Below the pieces are notes generated by a model, which did not search any database, was not told the DNA's origin, and was given only the letters and a program-made list of their open reading frames with translations. Of a DNA stretch of 32,209 nucleotides, positions 4,614 through 31,510 are shown piece by piece (the stretch's first letter is position 1; each line of letters begins with the position of its first letter). The position numbers were made by a program, and so were the translations under genes. This DNA comes from a virus (Duplodnaviria > Caudoviricetes): positions 1 to 32,209 of the IMG/VR virus record IMGVR_UViG_3300017705_000119; one strand, 5' to 3'.

Positions 4614-7600
4614 TTAATAATTTAAGATGTCTTGGATATTACGTCCGTATCGCGCTGCGGCTTGACGGCGTTTAGTTTGGATTCGAGATTCAAGTAGTTG
4701 AGGGAACTCTTTCTCTACTTCCCTGTATGCGCGAGACCGATACTTAGAGAGTATCTTTCTCAGTTCGCCTACCTTCGGGTCGTAGTCTGGAGTTTCCACC
4801 ATACGTTGGTAACGTGGAGATTCTATGAGATGCTCTAAGGCTTCTCGTAGAGTCCTGCCATTTAGCTTAACGGTGCTATGTAGTTCTTGCCAGCGGTCAT
4901 AGCTAGTTTGTCCCGACTTGGAAACAACCTCGCGTAAGTCCACTCCGTTCTTATTAGCTTGAGGAGGAGAGAACCCATGTTCACGTGAAGCTAGTTCTTT
5001 CTTTACCACATCACTACTTACTTGTGAATAGGCAAAAGGAGACATGAACTCAAGTCCACCTGGAGCCCAGTAACCTGGCTTCTCAATAGGTTCACCTAGT
5101 AGGTCCCTTCGAGGCATCAGTTTATCAGACATGCCAGGAGTTCGGCTTAACCATTGGTCAGCAGCAGAACGTATCTCGCGGTAGTATGGGTCAGAGTTCA
5201 TGTCCTTAATAAGAGTAGGCATTCCGGCACTGGTAAAGCTACGTGCCCATCTTGCCCCATGAACTTCAGGGTTTGTGAGAGCTTGAACAGCTTGAGTTAT
5301 ACCTTGTAGGTAAGTCTTCTCACGTAGGTTGCGACTAAAGGCCATTGTTGAAGCCATAAAGATGTCCATCAATGGTGCATCATCTTCATTTTCAGCTTGG
5401 TGGGCCATACCTTCTACAAGGTCAGCAGTTACACCGAGGAAACTAGCCCAAGGGTCCAAGCGTTTGTAGCTAATCCAGCCGTCAGCCGTTTTAATTGAGT
5501 ATGGTTGGTTACCTGCGCTCAACCATATTTGTCTTTGTTGTGAATCTTTCGGTCCACCACCAGTTAACTTACCGGCTGTAATAGCAGTGAGTGCAGTAAC
5601 AGTCATCATACTTCCAGTAACCAGACGTCCAACGGCATCAGCCTTTAGATTAGGGTCACCACCGTAGATAGCTTGGTGATACTCAGGCTTAAGCTTAGAC
5701 TTAACTAATGGCCACACGTCAAACATTGGGCTAAGTTGACGGTCAACAAACCATGTAGCTAGGTTTGTCGGGGTATTAACGAAAGGAATAATCAAACGTC
5801 CTACTGGATGCTTGGCAAGTCCTCTTTGAAGGGCTGCACCGGCTCCTTGTATTACACGAGACGCTGGGTTGGCACCTAAGTTCGGGTTGTTAGCTGATGT
5901 GAATGTAGCTTCACGTGCAAGACGTAGACCTTCTTTGGCAATATTGCCGAGGTCGTTGTCCCACATATCATTAAAGAGTTCAGTAGCTTTCTCACGGATG
6001 AGATACTTAGCATCATCACCTGCTTCACCTACTTGTTCACGTGCCATACGTTCAGCTTTGTTCCACATAGTACGGGCGCTATACATCTTCCCGTCCTCAG
6101 TCATAAGGTCGAACTTCTTCTGCACCCATTTCTGCTGTGCGACTCCATCAGAAGGATGAACGTCTTTAGCTTTCTGAGTTAAATCAGCGAGTACGTGAGC
6201 ACGATAGTTTGTCTGTTTAGCAAACTCATCGACAGCTCCCAATGCTCGGAGAGGGAAGGTTCCAACACCATGTAACCAATTCATAACAGTACCAGCAGCA
6301 GTGTTATCTAACCCAGCTACTTCAGCTACATTAGTTCTACCCCGGTGCATACCTGTTGCATCAGTTAGTGAAGACCTGCCGCCTGGGTCAAGCTGACTTG
6401 AACCTTCACGTAGGACTACGGGTATCATCCCTAGACTTTCCATTGCTTGTCTTGGGAGGTTTGCAAGCATAGCTAATTGTTGCTTTGCGTTAGCATCAGT
6501 AACAAGAGCACGACCAATCATCTTCTCAATAGGCATGATGACTGTATTCATCCATGAGCCCATCGCGTTAACCGTCTGTGTCTTAACACCAGATAGTAGT
6601 GATGAGTAGTAAGCTTCCATTAACACGTGACCCCAGCCCATCTTGTAGCGACTGTTGGATACACGCATTGCGTTGACATCACCCTTCTCTATAGCAAGGA
6701 CGGTTTGTTCATACCACTTCTCGCCGTCAACTTTACCGTTTTCGATAGCGTCAACTAGCTTAGTGAACTCTTCGGTTTCTACACCATCGACATACTTGCC
6801 CTCGAGTTCAGTGGTAGTAATTGCAGAACCCTTACCTTTACGCCTACGTGATGCAAACGCACGAGCTAAGGATTCCATGTTTGTAATAACAGAATCAGAC
6901 GCAGCACCTAGTTGTTTCTCAACAACCATTGCTTGAGCAATCATCTGTGGGGAAGGTTCTTTACCTTCTTTCTTCAGGTCACGTATGGCGATGATGTTCC
7001 GCTTATGCTGACGTAACAGCGCAGCTTCAACATCTTGCATCGCATAGATATGAGTAAGTGAATCTTCAAACACTCGTTGACCACTTGTAGCAATCTCAGC
7101 GAGAGCTTCTGTGCCCTCAACATTAGATGTCTCATAAATTGTATGAGCACGTTGTTCAGCAGCAATAAGCTTTTCTTCATACGACATAGCTTTGAAGCGT
7201 TCATTATTACGACGTAGGTCACGTGCTTTGATAAACAAGTCACGCGCTGTGTCATCACTAGATACAAGGTCTGGTCGGCCCTCGAGGTCACTAGGTATGC
7301 TATAGACTTCACCAATGTCAGACGCGGTTGAATCTAGGTAGACAACACTACCATCCTCATTCACGACGTTGCCGTCATACTCGGGAGCACGTTGAGCAGC
7401 TTTCTCTGCTTTAGCTTTACGTGCAGCACCTGTGTTGTCGGGCTCTTGGAATAACTTAGCCGGTTGACCCCCAGGCTCGGCCATCTTCCCACCACGTTCA
7501 AACAAATCGTCAAACACTTGCTTAACTTTAGGGTCAATCTTAACGTCCACTGCTGACCCAGCAACGCGACGATAGATGTCAAGCATAGCTGTAGCTAACG

Positions 7601-26772: not shown

Positions 26773-29133
26773 CTAGTTAAAGAAATAGAGAGAATTAAAA
26801 ACCGAAGATGGGAGCATATTTCCAAGCTTCGGGGGTTGCGGAAGGTCAACTCCCGTCAACTGTTCACACAATTCGGCGCGGAACTCAGCGAGTACATCCC
26901 TATCAAAAAGAGACGAGGCTGATTCTCGGACGGCTTGAGCTAGTTGAGGTAAATCTGCGGCGTGACACCCGTAACTATCGTGCACCATTGAGAAGTGCGT
27001 TACGTCTGTTGCATTACAAATTGTCTCTACCATTAAAGCTGCGTCGAAAGAGTGTGTGAAGTTTGCAGTTATAGTTTGTCGTTGTCTACGACTGCTTATG
27101 ACCGGAGTAGGTTCCTGGACATAAGATACATGATAGCGTTGCCCAAGATTAGTTCTGACCTTTCTTGCGTTTTTCTTAAAATAAAGGTTAGTGACTTCAA
27201 GCCCCGTTGGAACGGTCCATGTGATGGGTTTGGCCTGTTGAGTAGCGAGTGTTGCGCATAGTTGGAGGTAGTCCTTACCCTCTAAGACTGCTGGTATGTG
27301 GTCAGGCAGCACCTTCCAAAGAAGTTGAGCAAGATAGTTGGCGCCAACAAAGTCGTTCTTCCAGTTAGGAACAAGGCCATCTTCACGCTGCTTCTGAAGC
27401 CAGTCAAAGATAGTTCGAGAGACACCTTGTAGCGTAGCCGAGTAAGGCACAATCATTACGGCACCCTTGACGGTGCTTCGGTCAATGCCTATGCGCCGCC
27501 ACTCTTGTGAGTAGAAACCATCATCTAGTTTACTGATAACATCATCAGCTACAGCTCGGTATAAGTCCTGTGGGGTCTCAGAGTACGTGCAGTTAGTTGC
27601 TACACCTGTGTATTCATCTCTCCGAATCAATGCCCAAATCTGACAGCCATTATTTGTACCATCAACATGGCATGGTAGGTAACTCGGAGTCTTTGGTTCG
27701 CAAAGGATAGAGTGGTATTCGATAAGCCAAGCTAAGAACTGGAAGGGTTCTTTAGCATCAACCCAAAAGCTCATGTAGTTTAATGGGTCATGCCCGGCGT
27801 TGAAGATAAGCTTTGTGTTTTCCTCAACCCATGCAACACGCTCATCAAGAGTTAAACTAGAGTGACCATAGTGGTTGGCACCCTTCACCTTGTAAGCCTT
27901 GAAGTGTTCTTCTTCAGTAAGTGGTTTACCTTTAGAGAACTGAAGGAGACCTCGAGATAAATCATCTCCTTGGTTGTTTAGTCCAACCGGTACGGAATAC
28001 ATCCGACCTCTGAAGTCTAACTGTTGAGGTAAGAAGAACTCTGATACTGAACTGAACTCCTCTGCTTGTTGAATGAGTCGAGCAACAGTTAGCTTCCTGG
28101 TCTTCATCTTATTGTTTGTTGCAATAACACGTGCCTTCTCCGCACCATATTGTTTACGTGCTTCCACGTTAGTGCTGATGTCTGTTGGTACTGTTGGGAA
28201 AGGGATAGGTTCACGCATAGGTAAACCAGTGACGGGGATGTTGTTCTTGTATAAGTGTTGAACCACTTCAAGCATACGTCCATTGACTGACCAGCCGGTG
28301 TCCTGCACTCGGTTGATAGCGTCATAAACTTTAGGCATTGCCTCCGGTGTAAACTTAGAGAGGTCACGTTGTGACTTAACAAGTGTAAGTGGTGTGTCAA
28401 TGTAGCCACCAACATCCGGTGCACCCCACGACAACGGTTGAACAACCATTGGTGTGTACAGTGGGCGCAACTCCTCACGAAAACCATGAGCCTTCTCTAG
28501 CCAATCAACCATCGCATCAGTAGGAACAACCACGCTGCGGTTACGGTTACGCCTTGCGTCATAGCTGGTCTGCACTTCGACAACACCAGTTGACTTAATG
28601 AACAACTCAAGGCCGACAACACCGGCCCTTATCTTTTCATCAATAGTCCATGCGTTACTTTCAATGTTGATTGCCTTACGTAGAGCACCAAGTAAGAACT
28701 CACCTTGGCGTCTGCTGCCTCGGTCAGTCCATGTTGACTTCTGAATGAGTCTAAATGTTTTAGGGTCTTGAATGCGGAAGGCTTCAAGTCGTGCCTCTTG
28801 TGACAGTGCGGTGCCTATTGAAAGATGCAGAGCAGTGATTGATTTAGCAGTGGTGATTGAGTTAAGTACCGCACGACTGATAAGTAGAGCAGTAGTCTGA
28901 GAAGGTAAGGCAGACATTAGTGGTAAAGCGGCGTGACCTCTGCCAGCTCTACGTCCGGCGTGTTCTTTCCATTCGTCTAACTCTTGTTCTACAAAGGGAG
29001 TCAACCGAGACAACGAAAGACGGCCAACAGCAGTCTCTGTTTCTTCTTCATTCTCCTTATAGTGGCTAACTGTGGTGCGGTACCTATGCTTTGCCTTATC
29101 CTTAGCAGCTTGTTCTAGTTCTATTTCGTCCAT
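26773..29133 (-). CDS. Single-subunit DNA-dependent RNA polymerase (gp1-like)
   Basis: PMVV.P..W, DFRGRMY, QGDDLSRGLLQF, PFQFLA, VDGTNNG.Q (motif A), R..VK..VM..PY (motif B), NFTHSFDA, VHDSYG (motif C); start set at MDEIELEQ (ATG 29133). Confidence 0.97.
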   Translation of the reverse strand: MDEIELEQAAKDKAKHRYRTTVSHYKENEEETETAVGRLSLSRLTPFVEQELDEWKEHAGRRAGRGHAALPLMSALPSQTTALLISRAVLNSITTAKSITALHLSIGTALSQEARLEAFRIQDPKTFRLIQKSTWTDRGSRRQGEFLLGALRKAINIESNAWTIDEKIRAGVVGLELFIKSTGVVEVQTSYDARRNRNRSVVVPTDAMVDWLEKAHGFREELRPLYTPMVVQPLSWGAPDVGGYIDTPLTLVKSQRDLSKFTPEAMPKVYDAINRVQDTGWSVNGRMLEVVQHLYKNNIPVTGLPMREPIPFPTVPTDISTNVEARKQYGAEKARVIATNNKMKTRKLTVARLIQQAEEFSSVSEFFLPQQLDFRGRMYSVPVGLNNQGDDLSRGLLQFSKGKPLTEEEHFKAYKVKGANHYGHSSLTLDERVAWVEENTKLIFNAGHDPLNYMSFWVDAKEPFQFLAWLIEYHSILCEPKTPSYLPCHVDGTNNGCQIWALIRRDEYTGVATNCTYSETPQDLYRAVADDVISKLDDGFYSQEWRRIGIDRSTVKGAVMIVPYSATLQGVSRTIFDWLQKQREDGLVPNWKNDFVGANYLAQLLWKVLPDHIPAVLEGKDYLQLCATLATQQAKPITWTVPTGLEVTNLYFKKNARKVRTNLGQRYHVSYVQEPTPVISSRRQRQTITANFTHSFDAALMVETICNATDVTHFSMVHDSYGCHAADLPQLAQAVRESASSLFDRDVLAEFRAELCEQLTGVDLPQPPKLGNMLPSSVFNSLYFFN

Positions 29134-29220
29134 GATGTTTAGCCACATACTCTGCCACAAAAGTGGCCACACTTGCCGCAAAATGGTAGCGGCTGTGGAT
29201 TAAGTGTCTGGTGTAGTTGT

Positions 29221-29383
29221 GAGAAAAAAGTGTGGCGTGTGGCTGATACAGGTACCTGAAACCTGCGCGTATACCAATTCCGCCACCTGGGCCCATAGAA
29301 ACCACCACTTTCTGAGTGTTCCATGGTGTGATGACCACTGGTATAGGCCACATCAGCCACACAATTACCACACTTTTTATCTC
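29221..29383. repeat. Bipartite inverted repeat flanking the tRNA fragment
   Basis: AAAAAGTGTGG (29225-29235) and GTGTGGCTGAT (29237-29247) are exact reverse complements of CCACACTTTTT (29368-29378) and ATCAGCCACAC (29352-29362). Confidence 0.9.
29248..29292 (-). other. 5' half of tRNA-Leu(CAG); att core, not a full tRNA
   Basis: GCCCAGG-TG-GCGGAATTGGTATACGC-G-CAGGT-TTCAGGT-ACCTG-T: acceptor 5' strand, D arm, anticodon arm with CAG; no variable arm, T arm or 3' acceptor strand follows. Confidence 0.88.
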
Positions 29384-29400
29384 TGAGTAACATTAGTTAT

Positions 29401-30444
29401 TTATGCCAGTGCATCTAGTTTTTGAATGGCCATAACTGAGTTCAGTGGGCTTAGGTGACTGTAACGTAGAGTTGTTTTTATATCTACGTGACCAGCCAAG
29501 TTAGCAACCACTGGTAGACTCTCACCATGCTGCACTAAGAGGCTACAGAACGTATGTCGGCACGTGTGCCAGATGAAGTCTTTATCTTCATGCTTACCTA
29601 GGATTTTCCTAAGACGCTCCCAGGCGGAACGGCAGGTGCTCTTAGAGAGACGAGTAAACGGCCCGTCTTGTTGGTACTGAACGTCCACCCCACGTGGATA
29701 GACTGCATTGAATGCTCGTCGTGTCAGTGGGATGGTACGGTCTGGGCTACTGGTATGTTTACCACCATGTATGAATACAGCATGGTCATCTCCCCATGGG
29801 CGTATGTCCTTAAACTCAATGGTCAATGCTTCCATCAACCGAAGGCCAGTGTCGCACATGAATTGAAAGAGCCGGGCATAGTCCCCGTCACCAAGTGTGT
29901 TAAAGGCAGTGACGATTTTCTCTTGCTCCGGCATACTGTAATAACTGATACGAGTTAAGCGTTCCGGCCTACGTTCTATCGCAGGACGCCGACGAACCCA
30001 ACCACGTTTATAAGCATGTCGAAATAAAACAGACAGGCAGCTTAACTTTCTGTTTATCGTGCCATCAGCTTTGCCCTTCTCTCGGAGATGTAAGACAAAG
30101 TTATCAATACTAACTTCATCTATTTCATCCATCTTCTTAAGTGGGCCAAAGTAATCCACCAGAGCGTGAGTGTTAAGTACAGCAGTACGTTCCCCACGTT
30201 GACCGGACCAACGGTGTGTTACCACATCGTCGATACAGTCTTGTAATGTTTTACCTTGGCTACGTGCCTTGTAGACTCGCATGTCTACGGTCTTACCATT
30301 CATAACATCAGCTTCAGTCTTGGCTGCCCAAGCTTCAGCATCATGCTCAGTCTTGAATGATTTTCTTAAGCGGCCGTTAGGTAAGCTCGAGTGTCTTACT
30401 TGAGCTTCCCAACTGTTGCCGCGTGGTGTTACTGATTTAGTCAA
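29401..30444 (-). CDS. int: Tyrosine recombinase / integrase
   Basis: N-terminal arm-binding-like segment (RGNSWEAQVR...KSFKT...AEAW), TINRKLS, TGLR..E, HTCRHTF, LAGH..I.TT.RY; AGGAGG RBS before TTG start. Confidence 0.95.
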   Translation of the reverse strand: MTKSVTPRGNSWEAQVRHSSLPNGRLRKSFKTEHDAEAWAAKTEADVMNGKTVDMRVYKARSQGKTLQDCIDDVVTHRWSGQRGERTAVLNTHALVDYFGPLKKMDEIDEVSIDNFVLHLREKGKADGTINRKLSCLSVLFRHAYKRGWVRRRPAIERRPERLTRISYYSMPEQEKIVTAFNTLGDGDYARLFQFMCDTGLRLMEALTIEFKDIRPWGDDHAVFIHGGKHTSSPDRTIPLTRRAFNAVYPRGVDVQYQQDGPFTRLSKSTCRSAWERLRKILGKHEDKDFIWHTCRHTFCSLLVQHGESLPVVANLAGHVDIKTTLRYSHLSPLNSVMAIQKLDALA

Positions 30445-30508: not shown

Positions 30509-30955
30509 TTATTTTAATGGTATTCCATCTAGAAGTACCTTCACACGTTGAACGTAGGGTTCAGTTGCCTTCTTCTGAGGGCCACGAGGGCCACCGTTGA
30601 AGGTAGCTGCAAGGTGCTCTACGTTATCCATTGGGTTCAACCACTGACCATAAGCCCAGCGTTGAAAGTAGGCATCAGCTATACGACGGGCATACTTAAC
30701 GTCTTTAACGTCTTGGAATACCCCAGCTATCCTATCATCATATTCTACAGCGTCATACCAGAAGGCGTATGTTATCTGCAGTGGGCCATACTCATTGAAT
30801 GAGCCACGTGCATTAGCTGGGTTACGGTGTCCTCCAGTCTCTACTTCCTGAATAACTTGCAGGAACGTGAGTTGGTCTTGAGTTAGGAATGAGTGAGCCT
30901 CCGGTTTAGAACATGATGAGGCTATGAGAATTAAAATTATGAAGATGTGTTTCAT
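30509..30955 (-). CDS. Lysozyme-like (i-type/destabilase or SLT-like) muralytic protein with lipoprotein-like signal
   Basis: MKHIFIILILIASS-C signal; VETGG (candidate catalytic Glu), GPLQI..FW.DA, A..FNGGPRG, Y..RV. Confidence 0.75.
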   Translation of the reverse strand: MKHIFIILILIASSCSKPEAHSFLTQDQLTFLQVIQEVETGGHRNPANARGSFNEYGPLQITYAFWYDAVEYDDRIAGVFQDVKDVKYARRIADAYFQRWAYGQWLNPMDNVEHLAATFNGGPRGPQKKATEPYVQRVKVLLDGIPLK

Positions 30956-31320
30956 TGTGTTTTGTTTTTAGTTAGGTAGTGAGTTGCACTGTTGTGTGAA
31001 TTTGCCTTAAGGGTGGCGCATCCAGTTGAACAAGTGCGGTAATGTGTTGGCCCATTGAAGGACCGGTGGCAGACGTCACATCTTTTTGGATAGATAGCGA
31101 TGTCTTCCACTTCTACGAGGGCACAGTTTGGGCAAGGTGAAGATGCAGCAAGCTGCTTACAATCAGAGCACTTAACAACAGGTACTTCTACCCAACTGCC
31201 ATCGAACTCATCATCCGGATTTTCAACAGGCACTAAGCATGTATTCTCTCCGGCCTTCCACATAGCACCAGCTAAGACGATGCTACGTGGTCCTCGCCCT
31301 ATTGGGCTATTCTTCTTCAT
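30952..31320 (-). CDS. Early Cys-rich putative zinc-finger protein
   Basis: CSDC, CPNC, CDVC, CSTGC pairs; ATGA coupling to the next gene. Confidence 0.65.
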   Translation of the reverse strand: MKKNSPIGRGPRSIVLAGAMWKAGENTCLVPVENPDDEFDGSWVEVPVVKCSDCKQLAASSPCPNCALVEVEDIAIYPKRCDVCHRSFNGPTHYRTCSTGCATLKANSHNSATHYLTKNKTQ

Positions 31321-31510
31321 CAGCCTCGACAGTTGTTAGAGCTGTTGTTAAGTCACTCAGTCTAATTTGCTGGCTCGGGTAGATGTCCTCGAGTGGGAGC
31401 TTGTTAGCTTTTAGTAGCTGATATTCAGCATCCTTTAAGGAGCAGATTGTAGCCTCGTCATGCCACGTGGTGCCCCTATCATCGACGGTTACGACTATGA
31501 GCTGTACCAT
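31307..31510 (-). CDS. Early hypothetical protein
   Basis: 67 aa, TAATG coupling with the upstream gene. Confidence 0.6.
   Translation of the reverse strand: MVQLIVVTVDDRGTTWHDEATICSLKDAEYQLLKANKLPLEDIYPSQQIRLSDLTTALTTVEADEEE

Follow-up and report, generated by a model that had tools for sequence, protein, structure and literature searches.

Described systems

HTVC019P-type pelagiphages (10.1101/410191) and the cyanophages P-SSP7 and S-TIP37 (PMC8776855) have the same arrangement as the phage studied here: a tyrosine integrase gene (int) upstream of the gene for RNA polymerase, with attP in the non-coding gap between them. In these two reports, integration replaces the 5′ half of a host tRNA-Leu gene, sometimes with a base change, and attP is dispensable for lytic growth, as demonstrated by engineered deletion; attP is missing from two of 13 int-bearing cyanophages (PMC8776855). 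A term search of the pelagiphage text found no mention of a stem, hairpin or repeat (10.1101/410191). Why marine T7-like phages keep an integrase is described as open (PMC8776855), and how T7-like phages with integrases keep the RNA polymerase quiet and time the integrase is described as largely hypothetical in the LUZ100 report (PMC10134795). In that account, phage LUZ100 likewise controls transcripts between int and the polymerase gene, by way of a local terminator, a phage promoter and a MarR-like regulator (PMC10134795), whereas no such terminator or regulator was recognised here. Our phage differs from the pelagiphages and cyanophages in that no MarR-type repressor was recognised upstream of int, and in that strains of a single species differ in whether they carry attP.

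The sib element of phage λ is a compact hairpin lying wholly beyond att, at which RNase III acts on the int mRNA; the early RNase III sites of T7 are short-loop hairpins unrelated to integration. Retroregulation of int by sib is cited in PMC6379469. What is predicted for the present locus shares with sib an RNA structure downstream of int whose link to the int mRNA depends on the integration state. It differs in that the strands lie to either side of the crossover with a tRNA half between them, in that likely arm sites make up these strands, and in that integration would destroy the structure rather than move it. The locus is a known kind of site with two additions which we did not find in print, a covarying helix across the core and the natural presence or absence of a whole attP. 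A search limited to the open literature returned no description of a stem spanning the att core in T7-like phages and none of natural attP loss within a species.

Genome context

The window, that is, the whole stretch of 32,209 bases that was analysed, is 83% complete and carries T7-like genes on the minus strand. The genes and the segment discussed below are the following.

26773..29133, minus strand: T7-type RNA polymerase, 786 aa (Pfam PF00940)
29401..30444, minus strand: tyrosine integrase, 347 aa, P2/HP1-like (Pfam PF00589, E 4.7e-17)
29138..29407, no strand assigned: optional attP segment, 270 bp, delimited by strain contigs

The nearest named phage is LUZ100, with 35% identity by integrase and 31.5% by polymerase. 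The start of the polymerase was placed at 29133 because its homolog P0022 is 786 aa long, and 267 non-coding bases separate the integrase from it. All the catalytic residues of the integrase (R, H-x-x-R, H and Y) are present, and its best PDB sequence match, 5c6k, is an integrase. Residues 1-60 resemble Arm-DNA-bind_4 (atlas score 0.96; Pfam E 0.015, under the cut-off), and the N terminus may be an arm-binding domain.

A repressor gene was not recognised anywhere in the contig, which is 83% complete. ARAGORN called no tRNA in the window, and Rfam gave no match in the region at E values up to 1 and none at the gathering score in four comparison loci. The gene next to int on its upstream side (30509-30955, minus strand), at the place of a MarR regulator in relatives, specifies a protein of 148 aa whose N terminus is hydrophobic and which gives a weak match to destabilase (lysozyme-like; E 0.007); three imperfect 19-nt repeats fall within this gene at 30545-30677.

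Presence and absence of the 270-bp segment

Strains were compared by means of assembled contigs from four marine metagenome runs (X1-X4), out of 19 runs recorded as containing the sequence, among which no RNA run was listed. The contigs of X1, possibly the source run, and of X2 carry the 270-bp segment whole, and those of X3 and X4, which come from different studies, have 29137 joined to 29408 with two other letters. The empty junction has a depth of 11.4 in X3 and 16.3 in X4, with at least 255 nt on each side, and the flanks of segment-bearing and empty strains are 98-99% identical. Inspection of the junction showed that simple excision between direct repeats fails to reproduce it. The last codon and the stop of the integrase fall within the segment, and the empty form encodes a 351-aa integrase that overlaps the RNA polymerase start; the six full-length members of the integrase cluster comprise three of 347 aa and three of 351 aa, one of the latter on a 36.8-kb contig. 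Since strains without the segment exist, it is dispensable for phage growth. These strains also mean that an intact integrase need not imply an attachment site, and the natural attP+ and attP- forms offer a ready comparison for the change from temperate to lytic life.

The only relative found with the same segment is a 99%-identical allele, and matches in named phages are limited to the tRNA part. In an integrase tree made by a quick method, the species belongs to a 21-row clade (support 90) in which int abuts the RNA polymerase gene at every other locus of known context, a set without the nearest integrases, P0002 and P0004. Parsimony favours a gain of the segment within this clade. Much of the comparison below relies on a second, distant set of phages, which we call the L077 group: 20 distinct att regions of the same layout, with four different tRNA-Leu targets, whose integrase is about 30% identical to that of our phage and which serves as an analogue, being unalignable to it by sequence. 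Twice within the L077 group, forms that lack att are nested among forms that bear it, a pattern in favour of loss as the usual direction; the att-less L402, L405 and L406 are 96-97% identical to the att-bearing L399-L401.

The 127 distinct int 3′ junctions tabulated divide into 31 adjacent to the RNA polymerase gene, 36 with a tRNA 5′ half and 60 unclassified. Pairs of att-less integrases keep the catalytic residues and have dN/dS values of 0-0.24. Simple scans of the complete att-less relatives G001, G003 and G004 found no convincing tRNA half or motif cluster elsewhere in these genomes, where a target other than a tRNA is possible. In whole clades (L004-L014, L019-L026, L034-L037 and L425-L447) the integrase is intact and under purifying selection although no attP follows it; in L010-L014, R replaces G before the second catalytic His.

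tRNA half and core

Three features of the gap relate to the host tRNA.

29248..29292, minus strand: 5′ half of tRNA-Leu(CAG), 45 nt, the att homology, from GTDB matches
29254..29260, minus strand: anticodon loop, the likely strand-exchange region
29293..29346, minus strand: spacer, predicted to pair weakly (z about -2) with the tRNA half in attP RNA

Host tRNAs were compared in a partial GTDB scan (5 of 64 parts), in which tRNA-Leu(CAG) was called 119 times in the 120 loci and Alphaproteobacteria form the majority among the 80 matches listed. No genome in GTDB matched the 45-mer exactly in a separate search, and 78 of the 122 matches of the scan differ from it at one base only (44/45 identical). 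The last 23 nt of the tRNA half are identical to those of the hosts; because the anticodon loop lies within them, and because the tRNA homology of relatives stops where the loop ends, strand exchange probably takes place in this loop. Position 29271 is T in the phage and G in 122 of 122 matches. This T perfects a 7-bp complement to the upstream spacer at 29339-29345, which may be due to chance or be host-specific.

After reconstruction with 68 stand-in host tRNAs, the rebuilt acceptor stem has a probability above 0.5 in 59% of cases. GTDB scans revealed no prophage of this phage, and neither they nor the four runs contained attL or attR junctions. With neither a repressor recognised upstream of int nor a prophage found, integration may be transient, as it is in S-TIP37.

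Arm-type motifs

The gap is rich in a short motif, TGTGGC, which occurs in direct clusters on both sides of the core and is accompanied by a second motif.

29347..29372, minus strand: three direct TGTGG(C/T) copies with periods of 11 and 9 bp, at -114, -103 and -94 from the core; likely arm-type integrase sites
29142..29171, minus strand: three direct TGTGGC copies with a 12-bp period, just before the RNA polymerase start, at +87, +99 and +111 from the core; likely arm-type sites
29195..29216, minus strand: two copies of a second motif (ATCCAC/TACAC type), as in the post-core arm of relatives

There are nine copies of the TGTGG core in the 230 bp from 29142 to 29372. Seven of the 14 GCCACA copies of the window sit in this region, and none of 200 shuffles reached seven in 267 nt. 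Direct pairs of a related motif at about -116 to -94 and +112 to +146 are found in most of the 35 att regions tabulated, and across relatives the post-core pairs range over about +87 to +146. Because this layout recurs, and because the integrase N terminus resembles an arm-binding domain, we read the outer direct clusters, which sit about 90-115 bp from the core on each side, as likely integrase arm sites; the copies of the second motif are possibly accessory-protein sites. The layout lies within the size range of about 220-450 bp given for the attP of heterobivalent tyrosine integrases in table 1 of PMC4111918, and we regard the 270-bp segment as very probably an attP with arm sites. Two further motif copies, inverted and situated at +15 and +22, just past the core, are absent from the usual att layout and are extra here; in conventional relatives, an element that contains CAC is situated at +17 to +19, close to where this inner pair lies.

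Between core and arms there is no IHF-type site within two mismatches of the IHF consensus, and matches to that consensus occur in L077 and L411; a bending protein other than IHF is possible. A scan of viral contigs (13 of 64 parts) for the triple motif gave 121 loci, mostly other repeats and none integrase- or polymerase-like. A search of the open literature for a P2 arm motif gave only unrelated papers.

The inverted repeat

Two stretches of the gap are complementary across the core.

29352..29383, minus strand: 5′ strand of the predicted cross-core stem, by inverted-block match
29221..29247, minus strand: 3′ strand of the predicted stem, by inverted-block match, with two inverted motif copies and then U6

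The sequence-only reading of this DNA had reported inverted repeats straddling the att core, and the geometry that it described was confirmed throughout. Two perfect 11-bp inverted pairs (29225-29235/29368-29378 and 29237-29247/29352-29362) enclose the 104 bp of 29248-29351. An outer GAGA (29221-24) matches TCTC (29380-83) beyond a 1-nt bulge. The inner left block adjoins the last base of the tRNA fragment, as the match to the host tRNA-Leu(CAG) is exactly 29248-29292, and the minus strand reads as six U at 29224-29229. Within an arm, the two blocks lie 1 nt apart on one side of the core and 5 nt apart on the opposite side.

The TGTGGC motif underlies the blocks, each of which has a GTGTGG copy, such that 6 bp of each 11-bp block consist of repeated motif. 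When the 267-nt intergenic sequence was shuffled 5000 times by dinucleotides, two such blocks arose twice. Simulations that allow for the repeated motif give P values of 0.0025-0.0036 for two 11-bp matches, so the motif alone does not explain them. Elsewhere in the window, other 11-12 bp inverted pairs within 200 nt occur at 5041-5204 and 31170-31353; these are single blocks in or across coding regions and are probably due to chance.

The proposal that the repeat folds as an RNA stem existing only in attP was supported by its geometry and by the covariation of an equivalent helix in the distant group described below, but not by covariation in the phage itself, in which the sole other allele has two changes, neither of them in the arms. 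The fold z-score was discarded as evidence: the value of -6.6 obtained here is accompanied by values of -5 or lower in six of 16 other int-downstream regions, and the two strands fold alike (-6.29 and -6.22). When ungapped 14-mers were compared, the int-side arm matched the far direct cluster and the inner arm equally, at 11 of 14 positions each. The idea that the 3′ strand ends in U6 is correct for this phage, but the U-run is unconserved in the comparison group.

Pairing across the core in the L077 group

Each of the 20 L077-group regions shows pairing between the sequence that follows the int stop and the one that follows the anticodon loop. The pairing has z values of -3.4 to -7.5 against shuffled arms, with L015 and L067 at about 0; under a shorter window three of the group's values are -2.0 to -2.4. 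RNAalifold, unaided, predicts a 14-bp cross-core helix in these regions, in which 92.9% of cells are paired and 13 of the 14 pairs show two-sided changes, the cells not being independent events. The whole structure of 23 pairs, which was specified after the sequences were seen, pairs in 77.6% of cells, a figure reached by none of 500 shuffles and to be compared with 27-47% for slid controls. The inner helix thereby added is 53.6% paired and was not predicted by RNAalifold; L489 and L502 are out of register in the alignment.

In the integrase tree, each of about eight clades possesses a complementary pair of its own. The pairing reaches bases outside the motif, namely an A-run and U-run in L416-L421 and the spacer in L489. 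In L411, L413, L414 and L415 the inner 3′ motif copy has been lost and pairing is kept by means of tandem G-U pairs. Internal non-Watson-Crick pairs on the mRNA strand fall into seven G-U as against two A-C column classes, an excess that is suggestive of RNA (one-sided binomial about 0.09, with counts that follow relatedness). At all 15 loci of the group that were tested, the int-side arm is a closer match to the inner arm than to the far direct cluster (11-14 versus 8-11 of 14), with any ties confined to lower values.

Strong cross-core duplexes among 50 att regions with a recognisable core are confined to this phage, the L077 group, L501/L504 and L509, the helix of L509 sitting at the core itself; most att regions outside these groups are without one. 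An ordinary terminator after the core is present in nine of 28 other att regions, L501 included, as against none of the 22 rows formed by this phage and the L077 group. From these comparisons we consider that the helix probably works as RNA, and by analogy we infer that the repeat of our phage would likewise form an RNA stem.

Proposed mechanism and alternatives

The integrase would bind the direct clusters that flank the core at a distance of about 100 bp and recombine in the anticodon loop of the host tRNA-Leu(CAG). The crossover would place the int-side arm and the rebuilt tRNA in attR, and the inner arm and the RNA polymerase gene behind the host tRNA promoter in attL. Since the two strands lie on opposite sides of the core and would come to reside in attR and attL, the stem could exist only in the free phage genome. 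There the early transcript would fold into a stem some 26 bp long that contains a 5x1 internal loop; a cut in it by host RNase III would remove the tRNA half and split the integrase mRNA from the polymerase mRNA. The cut would expose the 3′ end of the integrase mRNA to decay and keep integrase low in lytic growth, while in the integrated state the integrase mRNA would run uncut into the rebuilt tRNA and integrase would be available for excision. By analogy with sib, our working model is an attP of a T7-like phage in which the arm sites on the int side also serve as the 5′ strand of a stem that is confined to attP and cut by RNase III, a combination that we put at slightly under an even chance. 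A stem made or broken by recombination would be a testable form of control needing no repressor. A switch acting on translation of the RNA polymerase was unsupported by folding and has been dropped: the energies for opening the start region in attP and in attL-like transcripts are about 1-2 kcal/mol apart, with a sign that changes with transcript length.

The int-side strand consists of likely arm sites, so the ideas of an RNA stem and of integrase sites, which the sequence-only reading had set out as alternatives, are not exclusive; the latter idea is largely right, and for the inner pair it persists as a rival. According to this rival, all motif copies, the inverted inner pair included, would be protein sites for integrase arms or a directionality factor; complementarity would be kept by a shared protein preference or by template switching between inverted copies, and the RNA fold would be a by-product. 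The motif content of the blocks (6 of each 11 bp) agrees with this, as does the CAC element near the inner pair in conventional relatives, and in other attP regions, too, motifs in mixed orientation produce inverted repeats of 9-11 bp as well as strong folds. There are also precedents: λ has an inverted arm site that is used in excision (PMC4111918), and P2 Cox boxes face both ways in attP (PMC3936717). However, in the L077 group the pairing covers non-motif bases and survives motif loss through G-U pairs, and the preference of the int-side arm for the inner arm held at 15 of 15 loci; moreover, the spacing of the copies is unequal between the arms (11 versus 7 bp), which an RNA internal loop fits better. 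We think it rather unlikely that the repeat acts as DNA only.

A second rival would retain a role for RNA and replace cleavage by termination. In attL the inner arm would fold on the host tRNA half and, with U6, block read-through from the tRNA promoter into the RNA polymerase gene, and in attP the upstream spacer and arm would capture those strands and alter termination. In attL RNA of 68 stand-in tRNA loci of alphaproteobacterial type, a mean of 5.4 of the 8 nt before U6 are paired, and the attP spacer is predicted to pair with the same tRNA bases. The phage is without an ordinary local terminator, and LUZ100 has a measured terminator after int with partial read-through (PMC10134795). Yet scans, a consensus scan among them, found no short GC-rich hairpin right before a U-run in this region; in the comparison group, 6 of 20 members, all in the L416-L421 subgroup, have a U-run behind the 3′ arm; the hairpin in attL has bulges and several parts; and the attP loop would be 104 nt. 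We consider such a switch improbable. Still less can be said for an invertible segment, in which 29248-29351 would flip between the inverted repeats and reverse the core. The inverted arrangement is all that speaks for it; no strand-changing joint appeared in any of the four runs (in contigs, which drop rare variants), 36 of the 127 int 3′ junctions have the tRNA half in the int sense and the 60 unclassified ones contain none in reverse, spacing within the arms is unequal, and no second recombinase was recognised. We consider inversion extremely improbable.

Returning to the stem cut by RNase III, a wider reading would be that several marine T7-like lineages independently made arm sites one strand of an RNA helix spanning the crossover, which would serve as a repressor-free sensor of the integration state controlling the int and RNA polymerase mRNAs. 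The attP and its sensor would then be a swappable 270-bp lifestyle allele within a species, and purifying selection on attP-less integrases would imply a second role for the enzyme. This wider reading is tentative, and we would not expect all of its parts to hold.

Other observations on related loci

Many relatives (L474, L484, L485, L486, L492-L495, L501, L506, L507 and L510) have a complete tRNA-Leu and a separate short anticodon-loop core between int and the RNA polymerase gene; a perfect inverted repeat of 12 bp extends over tRNA and core in L501 and L504. L403 (2310-3470) and L404 contain two and three tandem att cassettes with tRNA-Leu halves at the same junction, with short ORFs between them, and possibly represent phage-into-phage integration or stacked cassettes. 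The junction is also a cargo slot in L069, L075, L076, L413, L429, L437, L443 and L412, with or without attP, the ORFs being PAPS-reductase-like and DNA-methylase-like as judged by eye. The early region of L016 (130-3060) has A/C-rich leaders without Shine-Dalgarno sequences, and a repeated GTTTACAC element lies just before several of the starts.
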